DNA of 20,000 bases from an uncultured virus (IMG/VR IMGVR_UViG_3300030376_004046) (IMGVR_UViG_3300030376_004046:48712-68711), one strand, 5' to 3'; shown: positions 14,918 to 20,000, counted from the stretch's first letter. Notes: generated by a model from the letters alone, not told the origin. Translations and numbers: made by a program.

Positions 14918-16792
14918 TTATAAATTAGTTATCTCACAACTACCACCACTACAAGCTAGTTCACCTGATAAATCTGTTTCGTCTGTAGTTTCTGTGATGT
15001 TAGATAAATCTACATCATTTAAACTTTTAACTCTTTTATTAAACTCTGTTTTAGTAATATCTTCAAACGGTGCTTGAGTATAAGTACCACCATCGTAAGG
15101 TAAAACAGATAAACCATTATACTTATCTCTATTTTCCCACATCCACTCACCTGCTTTTTTCCAGTCTTCTTTCTTTAAACTAATAGTCGCAGATACATTA
15201 TGTGTGTTACTACCTTTTCTGTGACCAGGTTTAACCCACTCTGTAGCTACTTTTTTTACACGTTTAAGTAAATCAAACGCAGACTCAGTTCTTAATATAG
15301 AACCTTGCGGTGCTGACTGTGGTATTTCTATAACAGCAGTATCGTGTGGCCTAAAGTATTCGTCTTCTATTAAATCAGGATTATTTTCTTTTAAATACTT
15401 ATATATAGGTTCATTTTTACCTACACGTAATCTACGTATATAATAATCATTATGCCAAGCATGTATACCAGAAGAAGTTCCAAGTACAAGAGATGTTGTT
15501 CCAGCAGGTTTTATACATGTTGTTCTAGCTGCTTGGTTTATTCCTATTAGCTTTGCTACTCTTGTGTTCTCTCTTTTTACTATACTTGCAGCTTCCTTCA
15601 TATCCATTTGGAGCACAGCGGCACTCCCGATCCCTGTCATTGACACACCTATAAGTGCGTCTTTTTCTGTTGTCTCTTGCCATATTTCTCTTAGATAGTG
15701 GAATTCCGTATAACCTGCTTGAAGCGTGCCTATAAAAGATGCGGCCTTAACTCGTAGGTTAAGATCTTCTTGGCCTGTGACGTCACTTACATTAACTTCG
15801 CATAAGTTACAAAACTGATATGGCCTTAAAGCAATTTCACAACAAGGATTAGTACCCCAATCTTTATCATGATTAAAATATATGCCAGGTTCACCAGCTC
15901 CGGATAATTCAATACGTTTCCACAAATCTAAGAAAAATTCCTTTGTTATTTTATGTCTCATTAATACAGCAGAGTTATTAGCTCTACCACGTTGTGGATT
16001 TACTTCCCACCAATTACCTGATTTACATGAAATCATTTCTTCATCATACGCTGAAAATAACGATATAAGGGCTGCACGACGTATTCCACCAGCAAGTACT
16101 GCATCAGCCACGTGACAAATGATATCGTGTACTTCAAGTGTAGTAAGCTTTGTGCCATCTTCTTTCGCATCTAATATTCCTTTAATTTTTACTAAACATT
16201 CTTTTAACGGTTGTGGTCCTGGAGCTTTACCGCCAGACGTAACAAGCCTAGCTCCTTTTGGTCTAATATCAGAATAATCAAACTTTATCTTAGATGATCT
16301 CTTAGAGCCTAAATAAGACTTAATTAAAACCTTTATTGCATCAGACCAACCTTCAATACTATCACCAATAACAAATCTTCTTGTTCTACCTTTAAATGGT
16401 TTTGTTATGCAAGGGAGTAAGTTAATATGGTGCTTTTGAACTGAATAACCCACTCCACAACCAGAGAGTAAAAGAAACATGCATTCACTGAAGCTATCAA
16501 CATGATCAATAGGTAAGTAACTACAATTGTATAATCTATTTGGGCTAATTTCGATCGGCTTACCGCTGAACTGAAGCGAGCGCATAGATGGTAAAACTTT
16601 TTTTTCATAAACGTATTTATAAGCTAATTGTATTTGGTCTGTTAATTGTGGATACCTTTTTTGGTGCATCTCTTTATTTCTTGTAACTAATTCTTCCCAA
16701 GTCTCTCTTCTATTTAATTCTGGTATATACTTTGCATATTTCATATGCACAGTTAAATCAGATAATATTTTTTTATTTAAATCTACTGTCAT
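14918..16792 (-). CDS. nrdJ: Class II (adenosylcobalamin-dependent) ribonucleotide reductase, monomeric RTPR-like
   Basis: RRETWEE, LPSMRSL, YNCSY, GCGVGYSV, GGIRRAALISL, RANNS, GEPG, TNPCCEI (thiyl-radical Cys), TCIKPAGTTS and a C-terminal redox pair ACSGGSCEI. No NrdB/NrdF gene in the window. Confidence 0.92.
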   Translation of the reverse strand: MTVDLNKKILSDLTVHMKYAKYIPELNRRETWEELVTRNKEMHQKRYPQLTDQIQLAYKYVYEKKVLPSMRSLQFSGKPIEISPNRLYNCSYLPIDHVDSFSECMFLLLSGCGVGYSVQKHHINLLPCITKPFKGRTRRFVIGDSIEGWSDAIKVLIKSYLGSKRSSKIKFDYSDIRPKGARLVTSGGKAPGPQPLKECLVKIKGILDAKEDGTKLTTLEVHDIICHVADAVLAGGIRRAALISLFSAYDEEMISCKSGNWWEVNPQRGRANNSAVLMRHKITKEFFLDLWKRIELSGAGEPGIYFNHDKDWGTNPCCEIALRPYQFCNLCEVNVSDVTGQEDLNLRVKAASFIGTLQAGYTEFHYLREIWQETTEKDALIGVSMTGIGSAAVLQMDMKEAASIVKRENTRVAKLIGINQAARTTCIKPAGTTSLVLGTSSGIHAWHNDYYIRRLRVGKNEPIYKYLKENNPDLIEDEYFRPHDTAVIEIPQSAPQGSILRTESAFDLLKRVKKVATEWVKPGHRKGSNTHNVSATISLKKEDWKKAGEWMWENRDKYNGLSVLPYDGGTYTQAPFEDITKTEFNKRVKSLNDVDLSNITETTDETDLSGELACSGGSCEITNL

Positions 16793-17232
16793 TTATTTTC
16801 TTTAATTAATTCTATTACTTTATCACATTCCTTTTGGTTCTGAGGTTTATATAAGGTTACATGTTTTAAGTTATCATTTACATATTTTTTAAACATTTTC
16901 CATCTCATTGGAAAACTTTCGTTAGCTCTACCTTTACACTCAATTATAAATGTATCAGAAATAAAGTCTGGTGTGTATCTTATAGGTAATATTTTTTTAC
17001 AACCTCTATTAACTAATTCACCTTTACCATTGCTTTGCCTTTCATAACTCTCATTGTCAAACATAAAACCTTCTTGTACTGTATATGTTTTGCCTTCGTA
17101 TTTAGCTTTTATTTTAGCTTTTTTTAAAGCTATATACATATATTTTTCTAAACCACTAGCAAACGTGATCCCGTCAAACTTAACTTTCTTAGCTCTAACA
17201 GGACCACGTTTTCTTTTATATTTCTTTTTCAT
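16789..17232 (-). CDS. PD-(D/E)XK nuclease, T7 endonuclease I-like (putative Holliday junction resolvase)
   Basis: FASGLE, YTPDF and IIECKG motifs match the endonuclease I pattern (SGLE...YTPDF...ETKG). Confidence 0.8.
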   Translation of the reverse strand: MKKKYKRKRGPVRAKKVKFDGITFASGLEKYMYIALKKAKIKAKYEGKTYTVQEGFMFDNESYERQSNGKGELVNRGCKKILPIRYTPDFISDTFIIECKGRANESFPMRWKMFKKYVNDNLKHVTLYKPQNQKECDKVIELIKENK

Positions 17233-17485
17233 CTAACTCTTCTCTTGCGGCTTGTATGTATAGCACAGCATCCATAAGCTCTTCTTGTATATCATTTAAA
17301 TATTCAGCTAAACCTTTTATACGTGAAGTTCTTTCTTCGTGTAATGTTTGGCCATATTTATCATAACCTACGTCTGATCTTTTAACAAACTTATCAACTA
17401 CGTTTTTAACTACAGGATCACGAAAGCCATAAGACTCTCTACACATTATACCGTTTTTTGCATCCATTATTTCTCTTTCGCTCAT
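17216..17485 (-). CDS. Small all-alpha NTP pyrophosphatase (MazG-like superfamily)-like protein
   Basis: R...G..KYG.TL...YLNDIQEELMDAVLY with an EExxD acidic helix. Family assignment is from recall. Confidence 0.55.
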   Translation of the reverse strand: MSEREIMDAKNGIMCRESYGFRDPVVKNVVDKFVKRSDVGYDKYGQTLHEERTSRIKGLAEYLNDIQEELMDAVLYIQAAREELDEKEI

Positions 17486-17486
17486 A

Positions 17487-18326
17487 TTAATCTTTTTTAA
17501 ATGTTCCGTTACTCATTTTACCTGTTCTGTTTTTAATCTCTTCATACGCAAGATCAATACAGTCTTCAATACTAGTGCCAGCAAGTTCAGCTAAGTTAGT
17601 TAATACAACAACACAATCACCAATACCATCCATTGTAGCTTTTTTGTCAACTTTAAGTACAGCTCTACATATTTCTCCAGCTTCTTCCATTAACTTTAAT
17701 GTTTGTGTTTTTGTATCACCAGCACTATATAAACCTCTTTCATTAGCCCATAATCTAATTTTATCAAATCTACACATTGTATCACATTTTTCTCTTGTAT
17801 CATTCATAATACCACCAGATCTAGTTTTACCATTGTATTGATCTTTCATATGTAAATTAGCTAAAGTATCATGGGTATCATGATTATCAAACCATCTAGC
17901 AAAAGCTCTATTGTATACGTAGCATCTGTCGTTTGTATATTGTGATCTTGCTACATTACTCATAATCCACTCTATTGATTTGTTTGTTATTGTACACTCA
18001 CCGAATGGTGTATCCCATGACATACCTATATTATCCATAAGTTGTCCTTTTAGTTTTCTGACCGGACAAGGAAAAGTCGTAGTCATTTCTGTTACATTAA
18101 TTTTCATTTGATTACATTTTAATTTATTATAAGGTTTTTCGTCTATTCTGTAGCCGTGAAGTTGTTGCAAATATAACTCTTTTTTTGAAATATATTTAAT
18201 ATCATCAGACATTTCTAATATTTCATATTCATCTTCTGTGTAGCCTTGCTGTTGCTCAACACGGTGTTTTACATTATTTGTTACACCTATTTTTACACCC
18301 GGTATATGGTATATACAATATGTCAT
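17487..18326 (-). CDS. Fusion of a GIY-YIG-like N-terminal domain, an unknown middle region and a MazG-like NTP pyrophosphatase
   Basis: N-terminus YCIYHIPGVKIGVTNNVKHR...KKE. C-terminus WANERGL...KLMEEAGE...DGIGDCVVVL...AYEEIKNRTGKM.NGTFKK, with the EExxE...D..GD motif of MazG-like enzymes. Confidence 0.75.
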   Translation of the reverse strand: MTYCIYHIPGVKIGVTNNVKHRVEQQQGYTEDEYEILEMSDDIKYISKKELYLQQLHGYRIDEKPYNKLKCNQMKINVTEMTTTFPCPVRKLKGQLMDNIGMSWDTPFGECTITNKSIEWIMSNVARSQYTNDRCYVYNRAFARWFDNHDTHDTLANLHMKDQYNGKTRSGGIMNDTREKCDTMCRFDKIRLWANERGLYSAGDTKTQTLKLMEEAGEICRAVLKVDKKATMDGIGDCVVVLTNLAELAGTSIEDCIDLAYEEIKNRTGKMSNGTFKKD

Positions 18327-18979
18327 ATCTTATCATTATATAGATGCATATTATGTGCGAAATGATAATATACACCAGGTTCAACATTTAATTCATGTGC
18401 AACTAAGCCTTGTAACATAGAGAAACAATATTGATCGTTACAAAAACCATACCAAAGATCATTGCTACGCATTGTAACACACATATCAAGTCTATTATGT
18501 ACAATTGTAAATTGTACAGCGTAAGTACAAGGTGTGTCATGCGCATAATCAGTAATTTCTTTACCGTCATATATAGATATAGCAGCTTGTCTAGTTTCTT
18601 TGTTTTGTTTTAACATTTCAATAACCATATCTAGTTGAGCATTACGTTTCCATTGCCAACCATAATTAGAATTAACATTACCTTTGTCGTCAGCCATACG
18701 TTTCCATATTTCAGGTACTTTACCGTATAATCTACCAAGCTCTGATATATTGTTATTACCAGATAAGTACCACTGCCATTCAGCTATTGCATAATCTTCT
18801 TTCCATTTACGTTCTCTATTTATTATTTTATTGTCTAGTGGATCTGTTATATAAAAACCTACGTTAAACAATGCTTTAGTACCTGCAAAGTCTACACCGT
18901 CTTGTAATATACGATCGTGTATATACTCATATGCTTCATTTGCATTTCTAAAGACTTTATTATTTATTGTATTTATCAT
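18323..18979 (-). CDS. Thymidylate synthase-fold enzyme, T4 gp42-like dCMP hydroxymethylase candidate
   Basis: PEIWKRMADDKGNVNSNYGW, DTPCT (catalytic Cys), MRSNDLWYGFCND and HNMHLY. The likely start is the ATG at 18979, because the ORF-track start at 19030 overlaps the upstream gene by 71 nt. Confidence 0.85.
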   Translation of the reverse strand: MINTINNKVFRNANEAYEYIHDRILQDGVDFAGTKALFNVGFYITDPLDNKIINRERKWKEDYAIAEWQWYLSGNNNISELGRLYGKVPEIWKRMADDKGNVNSNYGWQWKRNAQLDMVIEMLKQNKETRQAAISIYDGKEITDYAHDTPCTYAVQFTIVHNRLDMCVTMRSNDLWYGFCNDQYCFSMLQGLVAHELNVEPGVYYHFAHNMHLYNDKI

Positions 18980-19229
18980 AATAGTATTTATAATATTCGT
19001 TAAACTTATCATAAACGGTGTTGTCCTCATATCTATTTGGATCTATATGTATTTTACCGTTTATATTTATTTCAATTTGCCATCTTGTTAAATCATCTTT
19101 CCAATCAGGACTTATAGCTATTTTAATGTTGTTACGCATGCACCAACCTACTATTTTCATCTCGTCATTAGACCAAGATCTCTGTGGTAGTTTTCTACTA
19201 GGTGCTTTTTGCCATTTAAAAAATGCCAT
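18960..19229 (-). CDS. Hypothetical protein
   Basis: 89-aa ORF translationally coupled (TAATG) to the helicase. No recognised motif. Confidence 0.75.
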   Translation of the reverse strand: MAFFKWQKAPSRKLPQRSWSNDEMKIVGWCMRNNIKIAISPDWKDDLTRWQIEININGKIHIDPNRYEDNTVYDKFNEYYKYYYDKYNK

Positions 19230-20000
19230 TATTCCCAGGGCATAGGCTCAGCTTCAACTTCATCTATTACATGTGGCACAAAGCTACCAGACCTTGGTTC
19301 CCAAGTAAAATGTGACTCAGCGCCATTTTCACCTAAGTTTTGAAATTTAACTTTAAGTACTTTAACTTTAGTTGTTTTTGCTTCATAGTCTCTATGTACT
19401 AACAAACCGTGATAACTAGCATCGTACCACTCACCACCACCTTTAATATTGTACATTGTAGGCTCTTCCATCTTACCATCAGAACCTTTGTACATTTTAG
19501 TTGGGTGAGCAACTATAAAAGTTAATACATCATACTTTTTACAAAAAGCTTCGATCTTAGCTAAATAATCCATTGTGTAACGGTTTACGTCATCTGATAC
19601 TGCATTTGTGTCTCTGATCTTATTAAACGGATCGAGGACTAAACATTTAATACCCTTACGTTTTACAAGCTCAGCGCCTTTACGTAATACAGCTTCAAGA
19701 CTATATTTATCCATATCAATAAAGAAATAGTTGTCGTTTACATGATCAGTTACTTGTTGCCATTTATCATTACCAATATCATCTACACGTGGCATATCTT
19801 GCCAATGCTTACGCATTAATTTATGAGCATGAAGATATACCGGCTGATTTTCTGGCGAAGCATACGCAGTTTTCCAACCATAATTATTATTATAACCAAC
19901 AACCATTTGATCAACAAAGTCAGATTTACCGCTACTAGGCACACCAGTGACAGTAATAAACTGCCCAGTATACGTGCTAAATATTTTATCGAAATTATTA
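19229..20000 (-). CDS. SF4 (T7 gp4/Twinkle/DnaB-like) replicative helicase, C-terminal part (5'-truncated by window edge)
   Basis: The frame stays open past the ORF-track start to the window end (...NNFDKIFSTYTGQFITVTGVPSSGKSDF). Walker A GVPSSGKS, SPEN, Walker B LVLDP, IVAHPTK, and IKGGGEWYD. Confidence 0.92.
   Translation of the reverse strand, partial: NNFDKIFSTYTGQFITVTGVPSSGKSDFVDQMVVGYNNNYGWKTAYASPENQPVYLHAHKLMRKHWQDMPRVDDIGNDKWQQVTDHVNDNYFFIDMDKYSLEAVLRKGAELVKRKGIKCLVLDPFNKIRDTNAVSDDVNRYTMDYLAKIEAFCKKYDVLTFIVAHPTKMYKGSDGKMEEPTMYNIKGGGEWYDASYHGLLVHRDYEAKTTKVKVLKVKFQNLGENGAESHFTWEPRSGSFVPHVIDEVEAEPMPWE

Follow-up and report, generated by a model that had tools for sequence, protein, structure and literature searches.

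The locus described here raises the question of whether a phage gene that carries the name thymidylate synthase (TS) encodes an enzyme acting on deoxycytidine monophosphate (dCMP), and whether this enzyme, together with a neighbouring MazG-type pyrophosphatase, serves to place a modified cytosine in the phage DNA. The gene lies in a stretch of 20,000 nucleotides (nt) from an uncultured virus (IMGVR_UViG_3300030376_004046:48712-68711; hereafter the window), which is the final 20 kb of one 68,711-bp contig (32.7% G+C). On terminase similarity the source is a phage of Flavobacteriia-type hosts, since its terminase is closest to those of uncultured Caudoviricetes and of Flavobacterium, Cellulophaga, Tenacibaculum and Maribacter phages. 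The TS homologue sits in a minus-strand replication and nucleotide operon in the order primase-helicase, open reading frame (ORF) of 89 amino acids (aa), TS homologue, 279-aa protein, second 89-aa ORF, DUF1064 protein and class II ribonucleotide reductase (Table 1). With good confidence, the sequence of the homologue points to a dCMP hydroxymethylase-type enzyme. That this enzyme and the MazG domain of the 279-aa protein form a cassette putting 5-hydroxymethylcytosine into phage DNA is the explanation that we consider probable, although by no means secure.

Counted from its first ATG, the ORF of the TS homologue comprises 235 aa; the start is likely at 19012 (229 aa) or 18979 (218 aa), and the ATG at 18979 is the one chosen by most gene callers for the relatives. 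Residues 73-234 match the family PF00303 of Pfam with 96 bits against a cut-off of 24.3. When solved structures were ranked with phmmer, T4 dCMP hydroxymethylase (gp42; 1b49) came first with an expectation value (E) of 6.5e-18, followed by the cytidine monophosphate (CMP) hydroxymethylase MilA (4.2e-15), while in the same search the best chain named thymidylate synthase (6auj) reached 2.4e-14 and E. coli ThyA 2.3e-10. Among the 120 listed relatives 12 entries have a name, in each case 'thymidylate synthase', and the names given by PHROGs and Pfam agree, which is the automated thyA label that a preliminary description of this DNA had expected. The TS homologue is thus misnamed by automatic annotation, and the error is a systematic one for such genes.

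The assignment rests on the active site. The final Asp of RSNDLWYGFCND (residues 188-199 of the TS homologue, nt 18469-18434) aligns with Asp179 of T4 gp42 in the phmmer alignment to 1b49 and with Asn177 of E. coli ThyA in a MAFFT alignment, and the preliminary description had therefore read the Asp at this position correctly. Its further observation that the IW...A...G..NSNYGW and D..CT segments are T4-like was also confirmed in the T4 and ThyA alignments. PEIWKRMADDKGNVNSNYGW of the TS homologue pairs with T4 PKIWQQVASSKGEINSNYGW, DTPCT pairs with T4 DFMCT where ThyA has LAPCH, and N-S-N-Y-G-W is the same in the query and T4 and invariant in the lineage. In E. coli numbering, which is used hereafter unless stated otherwise, the signature of the query reads Glu58, Ser93, Tyr94, Arg126, Asp143, Cys146, Thr147, Ser167, Asp169 and Asp177. 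The TS catalytic set (Cys146, Glu58, Arg166, His207 and Tyr209) is present in full, and it is invariant across the query and 79 related viral loci. The Asp three residues before the catalytic Cys is found in H-D-T-P-C, and R-S-N-D and E-T-R-Q pair with the Ser and Arg of T4 and ThyA. Chance can be discarded as the source of the motif match because of the margin by which PF00303 exceeds its cut-off and the invariance of the residues in the 79 loci and the query.

According to published work, Asn177Asp leads to cytosine specificity (PMC8670742; PMC13326640), and positions 177 and 147 distinguish the TS domains of cytosine-modified from those of unmodified contigs in the MetaGPA study (PMC8670742). 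In the T4 ternary-complex paper the hydroxymethylation signature combines an Asp located three residues ahead of the catalytic Cys with Ser94-x-Tyr96, in which a Ser or Thr precedes the catalytic-base Tyr by two positions (PMC6400193), and Leu143Asp/Glu separates hydroxymethyl from methyl products (Lee et al. 2026, PMC13326640). Asp169Asn is the mark of the newly found flavin-dependent 5-hydroxy-dCMP synthases, all tested ones of which have Asn there (PMC13326640), while Ser167 and Arg126' are deoxyribose-type residues, MilA having Ala and Lys instead (PMC5175136). The query agrees with T4 gp42 at every rule position, whereas the other references depart from it at Asn169 (RB69 gp48), at Asn177 (the Vi01 homologue) and at Leu143, His147 and Asn177 (ThyA). 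The proposal that the TS homologue is of the cytosine type and not a ThyA is hence supported, and as to the two products suggested with it, the Asp in place of Leu143 and the occurrence of the Ser-x-Tyr pair favour 5-hydroxymethyl over 5-methyl.

Other assignments within the superfamily were compared as well. The 5-hydroxy-dCMP synthase type is excluded by the residue rule, as the query keeps Asp169 (R-S-N-D against R-S-Q-N in RB69). A dCMP methyltransferase of the ThyA Asn177Asp type does not fit a protein that has Asp143 and no ThyA-like C-terminus. Canonical ThyA does not fit one with Asp, Asp and Thr at positions 177, 143 and 147 and a stop codon 4 residues after His-Leu-Tyr, as compared with about 30 residues in T4 and 13 in the active RB69 enzyme. 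We have also ruled out that this short C-terminus reflects a truncated or split gene: the start of the next ORF is not TS-like, 48 of the 80 lineage sequences (the 79 loci and the query) stop likewise 4 residues after His-Leu-Tyr, and the active RB69 enzyme is short too.

The signature is a property of the family and not of a single sequence. A search of 1.84 billion cluster representatives with the TS homologue gave 8065 matches at E up to 0.001, of which the best 150 were used; 34 shorter than 190 aa were left out, leaving 116. Cys146, Asp169 and Asp177 are present in 116 of these 116 best representatives, Asp143 in 113 and the exact five-residue signature in 104, and twelve checked positions are invariant in the 79 related viral loci and the query. 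In a quick maximum-likelihood tree of 126 sequences, the query falls in a clade of 22 short-tailed proteins (Shimodaira-Hasegawa-like approximate likelihood ratio test, 98) which also includes the homologue of Bacteroides phage BF486P2. This clade is nested in the Asp177 radiation, with T4 gp42 in a neighbouring part and ThyA and the Vi01 homologue outside, a placement that is to be read coarsely since many deep forks of the tree lack resolution and the branches leading to the references are long. The phylogeny with ThyA and T4 gp42 which the preliminary description had proposed as a check thus places the query with gp42 inside the Asp177 radiation.

Gene order supplies the second line of evidence. 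At least 585 contigs of the viral collection encode a relative of the TS homologue, and the best 80 of these are 61-89% identical to it and mostly contigs of 40-79 kb. The MazG ORF starts less than 100 nt from the TS stop in 69 of the 77 loci with at least 300 nt downstream. Among the eight exceptions, one (L032) is a failure of the ORF finder, two are cut inside the MazG gene, one (L030) is without a MazG gene and four have inserted genes, namely a 2-oxoglutarate (2OG)-Fe(II) oxygenase in L023 and L034, a dCMP deaminase in L050 and an unknown 117-aa ORF in L052. The oxygenase inserts (L023:1880-2638 and L034:2892-3590) match PF13640 with E of 1e-9 to 8e-11 and could act on a modified base. 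In a different, unrelated phage type (5 loci) a stand-alone MazG of 97-100 aa comes after the TS gene, and the pairing of TS and MazG therefore outlasts a change of genome context. Further genes observed in this phage type are the dCMP deaminase (L050:7729-8145) and, directly upstream of the TS homologue, a pyridoxal-phosphate (PLP)-dependent enzyme of the PALP family (L042:7088-7981).

A survey of the slot in front of the MazG gene was made on loci found through the 279-aa protein, 65 of which have at least 900 nt upstream. The slot is occupied by a hydroxymethylase-type gene in 60 of them and by a full-length ThyA-like gene in the other 5 (L150:3109-3993, L159:3156-4004, L163:3116-3988, L165:462-1310 and the frameshifted L166:3154-4004), and the ThyA-like slot lies between a small ORF after the primase-helicase and the MazG gene. 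The ThyA-like proteins are 282-294 aa in length and 41-43% identical to E. coli ThyA, and they have Leu143, Cys146, His147, Val93-Tyr94, Asp169 and the ThyA C-terminus, but Asp177. L150, L159, L163 and L165 carry the features of a dCMP methyltransferase (Asp177, a hydrophobic residue 143 and a ThyA-like C-terminus), and by the published rules the ThyA-like slot gene is a predicted dCMP methylase. From the 60 hydroxymethylase-type and 5 methylase-type genes it follows that the slot always holds a predicted cytosine C5 modifier before the same MazG fusion. This exchange is the best contextual evidence suggesting that the cassette serves cytosine replacement, and it makes a clean comparison available by which the published residue rules can be tested.

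The start of the 279-aa protein overlaps the TS stop by 4 nt. Its predicted model (predicted local distance difference test, pLDDT, 83.3) consists of a T5orf172/GIY-YIG-like region (residues 1-65), a second alpha/beta domain (75-150), a disordered linker (151-183) and an all-alpha nucleoside triphosphate (NTP) pyrophosphohydrolase domain of the MazG type (186-279). The preliminary description had spoken of two NTP pyrophosphatase-like proteins and a nuclease domain. One MazG domain is well supported, as is its place as a conserved neighbour of the TS homologue: the query matches MazG PF03819 with 25 bits against a cut-off of 22, as do 45 of 45 relatives, PRA-PH is matched by 41 of the 45, and the PHROG MazG-like match has E of 6e-34. 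Matches in whole-model fold searches are confined to residues 179-279, and the VIA Z scores of the MazG domain are 10.0 for HisE (1yvw), 9.9 for M. tuberculosis MazG, 9.1 for the mouse dCTPase-family structure 2a3q and 8.6 for cyanophage S-2L MazG. The metal-binding acids Glu214, Glu215, Glu218, Asp233 and Asp237 (E-E-x-x-E ... D) are invariant in 45 of 45 sequences. In marine metagenomes, 35-64% of the sampled words of the stretch recur in each of 14 DNA runs, which come from 9 studies, and the contigs of four runs over the region indicate a very microdiverse population. Contigs from an RNA library cover the region as well, although contigs cannot show transcription or base modification. Some metagenome contigs skip or replace 39-56 nt at window positions 17824-17884, within the disordered linker, and the length of the linker is therefore polymorphic in the population.

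What had been called a nuclease domain is a putative T5orf172/GIY-YIG-like region. The N-terminus of the query scores below the Pfam cut-offs for T5orf172 (16.8 bits against 20) and MUG113 (17.7 against 22.3), but among the 45 relatives there are 31 with a T5orf172 match at E below 0.1 (2.6e-4 at best) and 22 with a MUG113 match. The language-model neighbours of this region are stand-alone viral proteins of 128-145 aa, some with T5orf172, and Tyr6, Lys12-x-Gly14, Arg22 and Glu50 are invariant in the relatives. Comparison with T4 EndoII (DenA) gave no significant similarity, and only the K/Y-I-G-x-T-x-N-x-x-R motif aligns.

The claim of a second NTP pyrophosphatase, for which the 89-aa protein downstream of the MazG gene had been proposed, is not supported, as sequence, profile and fold tests were all negative. 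BLASTP against the MazG protein gave no match, no Pfam family was matched at E up to 10, and a profile of 41 sequences found no match among PDB sequences. With hhalign the probability against the MazG domain was 2.9%, and the comparison with T4 gp56 was also negative. Foldseek with the predicted model gave a best E of 2.6, the best VIA Z was 4.0 with no NTP pyrophosphatase listed, and the ESM Atlas returned unnamed viral clusters only. When Pfam was run on 41 members of the family, the commonest match was EncFtn-like (5 of 41, best E 5.6e-4). An E-E-x-x-D motif is present on a helix, with no further likeness to the MazG family. The model (pLDDT 78.5) is a two-helix hairpin with an invariant QEE-x-M-D, and the gene is syntenic in 67 of the 80 loci.

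Table 1. Coordinates of the operon features in the 20,000-nt window, with the basis of each assignment.
Feature	Coordinates	Strand	Basis
TS-superfamily protein, predicted dCMP hydroxymethylase (5-hydroxymethyl-dCMP synthase)	18323..19030	-	PF00303; best PDB match T4 gp42 1b49; residue signature
279-aa fusion protein (T5orf172/GIY-YIG-like + MazG)	17487..18326	-	Pfam, PHROG, predicted model, family counts in relatives
MazG domain, residues 186-279 of the 279-aa protein; proposed dCTP (and dCDP) pyrophosphatase that would feed dCMP to the TS homologue	17490..17771	-	Fold Z, conserved acids; substrate inferred
89-aa conserved protein, predicted two-helix hairpin	17216..17485	-	Model; invariant QEE-x-M-D; no family match
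147-aa DUF1064 protein, putative nuclease or Holliday-junction resolvase	16789..17232	-	Pfam DUF1064 E 1e-8; PHROG 190 'Holliday junction resolvase' E 1.2e-10
624-aa class II (B12-dependent) ribonucleotide reductase, deoxynucleotide supply	14918..16792	-	PHROG 367 E 1.4e-131; Pfam RNR-II insertion domain and RNR barrel
89-aa ORF between helicase and TS homologue, poorly conserved	18960..19229	-	Without Pfam or PHROG match
Primase-helicase, C-terminal 256 residues, cut by the contig end	19229..19999	-	PHROG 239 'DNA primase/helicase' E 2.3e-35

Of the remaining genes of the operon, the DUF1064 gene is found downstream in 64 of the 80 loci, while the ORF between helicase and TS homologue has tblastn matches in some relatives only (34-68% identity). 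The piece of primase-helicase corresponds to residues 317-571 of one relative's protein, the relatives' proteins being 569-574 aa in length. The same genome of about 70 kb encodes, besides this primase-helicase and the ribonucleotide reductase, Erf, an exonuclease and a sigma-like factor. Among the virion genes there is a 3225-aa ORF (L004:1116-10793, ending at window position 82) with no Pfam or PHROG match, which may represent a highly divergent virion RNA polymerase or else an injected protein. A closed circular genome was considered and rejected: the helicase frame (window positions 19229-19999) keeps its phase over the junction of the contig ends as far as an ATG (L002:1-165), but this is a coincidence, as the relatives show about 1.1 kb to be missing. 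Judged by the relative L013, the gap comprises only the remainder of a 102-aa gene and residues 1-314 of the primase-helicase.

Given the observed family membership, the presence of all published active-site marks and the conserved gene order, a pathway to 5-hydroxymethylcytosine may be proposed. The TS-family enzyme would convert dCMP, methylene-tetrahydrofolate and water to 5-hydroxymethyl-dCMP. The MazG domain would most likely hydrolyse deoxycytidine triphosphate (dCTP) to dCMP and pyrophosphate, thereby keeping ordinary cytosine out of the phage DNA and feeding the hydroxymethylase, and the ribonucleotide reductase, two genes beyond the MazG gene, would supply deoxynucleotides. A kinase, either of the host or an unrecognised one of the phage, would then phosphorylate 5-hydroxymethyl-dCMP for incorporation into DNA, and the resulting 5-hydroxymethylcytosine may protect the phage DNA from restriction.

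Several observations weigh against this pathway, chief among them the missing kinase. The genome is roughly 98% complete, and scans with PHROGs (61 ORFs) and Pfam (44 ORFs) recognised neither of the further genes for which the preliminary description had proposed a search, that is, no deoxynucleoside monophosphate (dNMP) kinase and no glycosyltransferase family, although divergent enzymes of the latter kind could escape. No DNA polymerase family was recognised in these scans either, and a scan for P-loops (Walker-A) in the 72 ATG ORFs of at least 60 aa returned only one 95-aa ORF. Since only about 1.1 kb of other genes is missing from the contig, the absence of kinase, glycosyltransferase and polymerase is real at the level of recognisable families. 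The kinase is the main gap in the pathway because T4 and RB69 require their own kinases for good incorporation (PMC13326640). The residue rules are correlative and derived mostly from enzymes of Enterobacteria phages, and the query has hardly anything of the C-terminal segment found in ThyA and T4 gp42, a point softened by the 13 residues of the RB69 enzyme. Comparison of the MazG domain with T4 gp56 gave no significant similarity. As MazG domains occur in 1489 phage records, many without known modification, the substrate is not readable from the sequence, and the proposed role as a dCTPase is suggested by position. Searches of full texts, moreover, brought up no paper dealing with modified cytosine in Cellulophaga or Flavobacterium phages.

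It is against this background that other explanations have to be weighed. The absence of a recognised dNMP kinase and phage DNA polymerase in so nearly complete a genome would be accounted for if the cassette remodelled the nucleotide pool and left the DNA unchanged, either by draining dCTP and dCMP to starve host replication or by acting on CMP like MilA, the second-best solved relative, with no kinase accepting the product. TS homologues expressed alone in E. coli give only trace incorporation (PMC13326640). However, Ser167 and Arg126 are of the deoxyribose type where MilA has Ala and Lys, the gene is located in a replication and nucleotide operon near the ribonucleotide reductase, a role in DNA modification agrees better with the methylase-type enzyme that relatives have in exchange, and homologues in Enterococcus and Lactobacillus phages adjoin beta-glucosyltransferase genes. 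We hence judge pool remodelling to be unlikely. A more elaborate version of cytosine replacement may also be considered, in which the 279-aa protein would be a single-chain 'cytosine exclusion' device whose MazG domain destroys dCTP while its GIY-YIG-like domain nicks or binds cytosine-containing (host) DNA. This fusion, possibly with the 89-aa hairpin protein, would form a fixed platform taking either a dCMP hydroxymethylase or a methylase. Phosphorylation and polymerisation would be left wholly to host enzymes, because no phage kinase or DNA polymerase was recognised. T4 splits these two jobs between separate proteins, gp56 and the GIY-YIG enzyme EndoII. The idea of a single-chain device is a speculative one to which we assign a low probability.

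The remaining alternatives concern the product of the enzyme. A dCMP methyltransferase making 5-methyl-dCMP, as in Xanthomonas phage XP12, would give DNA with 5-methylcytosine. Asp177 alone turns a TS into a dCMP methylase according to work cited in PMC8670742, and the close relatives with a ThyA-like Asn177Asp gene in the same slot indicate that the lineage can pair a methylase-type enzyme with the same MazG. The query, however, has Asp and not Leu at 143, Ser and not Val at 93, Thr and not His at 147 and Met and not Trp at 83, and is without the C-terminal segment seen in ThyA and the methylase-type relatives. The T4 mutation D145N abolishes the formation of 5-hydroxymethyl-dCMP, so that this Asp matters for hydroxymethyl chemistry (PMC6400193), and methylation by the query itself seems quite improbable. 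Another C5-modified cytosine nucleotide may be formed instead, or 5-hydroxymethyl-dCMP may be an intermediate which unrecognised phage genes hypermodify. TS homologues have recently been shown to carry out flavin-dependent 5-hydroxylation (PMC13326640), many early ORFs of the genome are without a family, and candidate tailoring genes exist among the relatives in the oxygenase inserted in L023 and L034 and the PLP-dependent enzyme upstream of TS in the other phage type. Yet Asp169 is kept where the tested 5-hydroxy-dCMP synthases have Asn (PMC13326640), the genome scans gave no match to a glycosyl-, carbamoyl- or aminoacyl-transferase or a DNA kinase, and the oxygenase insert is absent from the window, so that a different or further modification has little probability in our estimate. 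Least plausible of all is an ordinary thymidylate synthase converting deoxyuridine monophosphate to thymidine monophosphate. Pfam, PHROGs and the source databases all give that name, but the query keeps none of the ThyA residues Asn177, Leu143, His147, Trp83 and Val93, nor the last 50 residues of ThyA, and E. coli ThyA scores eight orders of magnitude below T4 gp42; the chance that the name is right is very slight.

If the hydroxymethylase-MazG cassette does put 5-hydroxymethylcytosine into DNA, one of the commonest marine phage groups would replace cytosine in this way, some members using 5-methylcytosine instead. Methods that assume canonical bases would then be biased, and the modification would have a part in deciding which of the restriction, CRISPR and glycosylase defences succeed against these phages. 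Such a cassette would also be much smaller than the T4 pathway and would show how little a phage needs to modify cytosine.

Among known systems, T4 is the obvious reference. Its gp42 (1b49/1b5e, 6a9a, 6l18) shares the TS fold with the query as the best solved match and has identical Glu60, Ser94, Tyr96, Asp145, Cys148, Thr149, Ser169, Asp171 and Asp179 (T4 numbering), and in T4 too a gene for an all-alpha NTP pyrophosphatase is associated with the hydroxymethylase. In contrast, the query is only 28% identical to gp42 and has a tail of 4 and not about 30 residues, its pyrophosphatase, which shows no detectable relationship to gp56, is of the MazG/HisE type and joined to a T5orf172-like module, and its genome has no recognisable gp1-like kinase, glucosyltransferase or phage DNA polymerase. 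The short TS homologues RB69 gp48 (238 aa) and DLP3 gp80, which are 5-hydroxy-dCMP synthases (NAR 2026, PMC13326640), resemble the query in Asp177 and an acidic residue 143 but have Asn169, a position at which Asp is retained by the query and by each of its 79 relatives in the lineage. The ThyA Asn177Asp dCMP methylases (XP12-type enzymes and engineered N177D/N229D TS) share the cytosine-specifying Asp, and relatives of the query have such a gene in the slot, whereas the query itself has the hydroxymethylase residues and no ThyA C-terminus.

The closest homologue in a cultured phage is BF486P2_00032 of Bacteroides phage BF486P2, annotated as deoxycytidylate 5-hydroxymethyltransferase. It is 226 aa in length, has the same short tail and signature and is 49% (MAFFT) or 48% (tblastn) identical to the query, but it belongs to another phage and another neighbourhood, with no adjacent MazG annotated. 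BF486P2 has two TS homologues, both with Asp177 (L001:5159-5920 and L001:7992-8672), one of which lies two genes upstream of a dUTPase gene. Two further observations were made on homologues in other phages. In Agathobaculum phage AB434P2 the gene at L009:3838-4500 is annotated as deoxyuridylate hydroxymethyltransferase, but it has Asp at ThyA position 177 and at 143, and on these residues the annotation probably names the wrong pyrimidine. In Enterococcus phage VPE25 (L007:4992-7350) and Lactobacillus phage ATCCB (L008:4986-6890), Asp177 TS homologues stand beside or one gene from beta-glucosyltransferase genes, which fits glucosylated 5-hydroxymethylcytosine.

A parallel to the cassette as a whole comes from MetaGPA (eLife 2021, PMC8670742), which reported, for contigs experimentally selected for modified cytosine, a co-occurrence of TS domains that have Asp177 and pyrophosphohydrolase domains of the PRA-PH type. 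The modules described there (TS with Asp177, PRA-PH/MazG and dCMP deaminase) agree with the present one in Asp177, a changed residue 147 and a PRA-PH-type partner, and the related locus L050 has a dCMP deaminase as well; they differ in coming from sewage and one coastal sample, and the query genome is without a carbamoyltransferase. This kind of system is already known, then, from T4, from MetaGPA and from the annotated Bacteroides phage homologues, and the present case is of some interest for its minimal set of genes, for the fusion of T5orf172 with MazG, for the 89-aa hairpin protein and its conservation, and for the exchange of hydroxymethylase-type and methylase-type genes in one slot.

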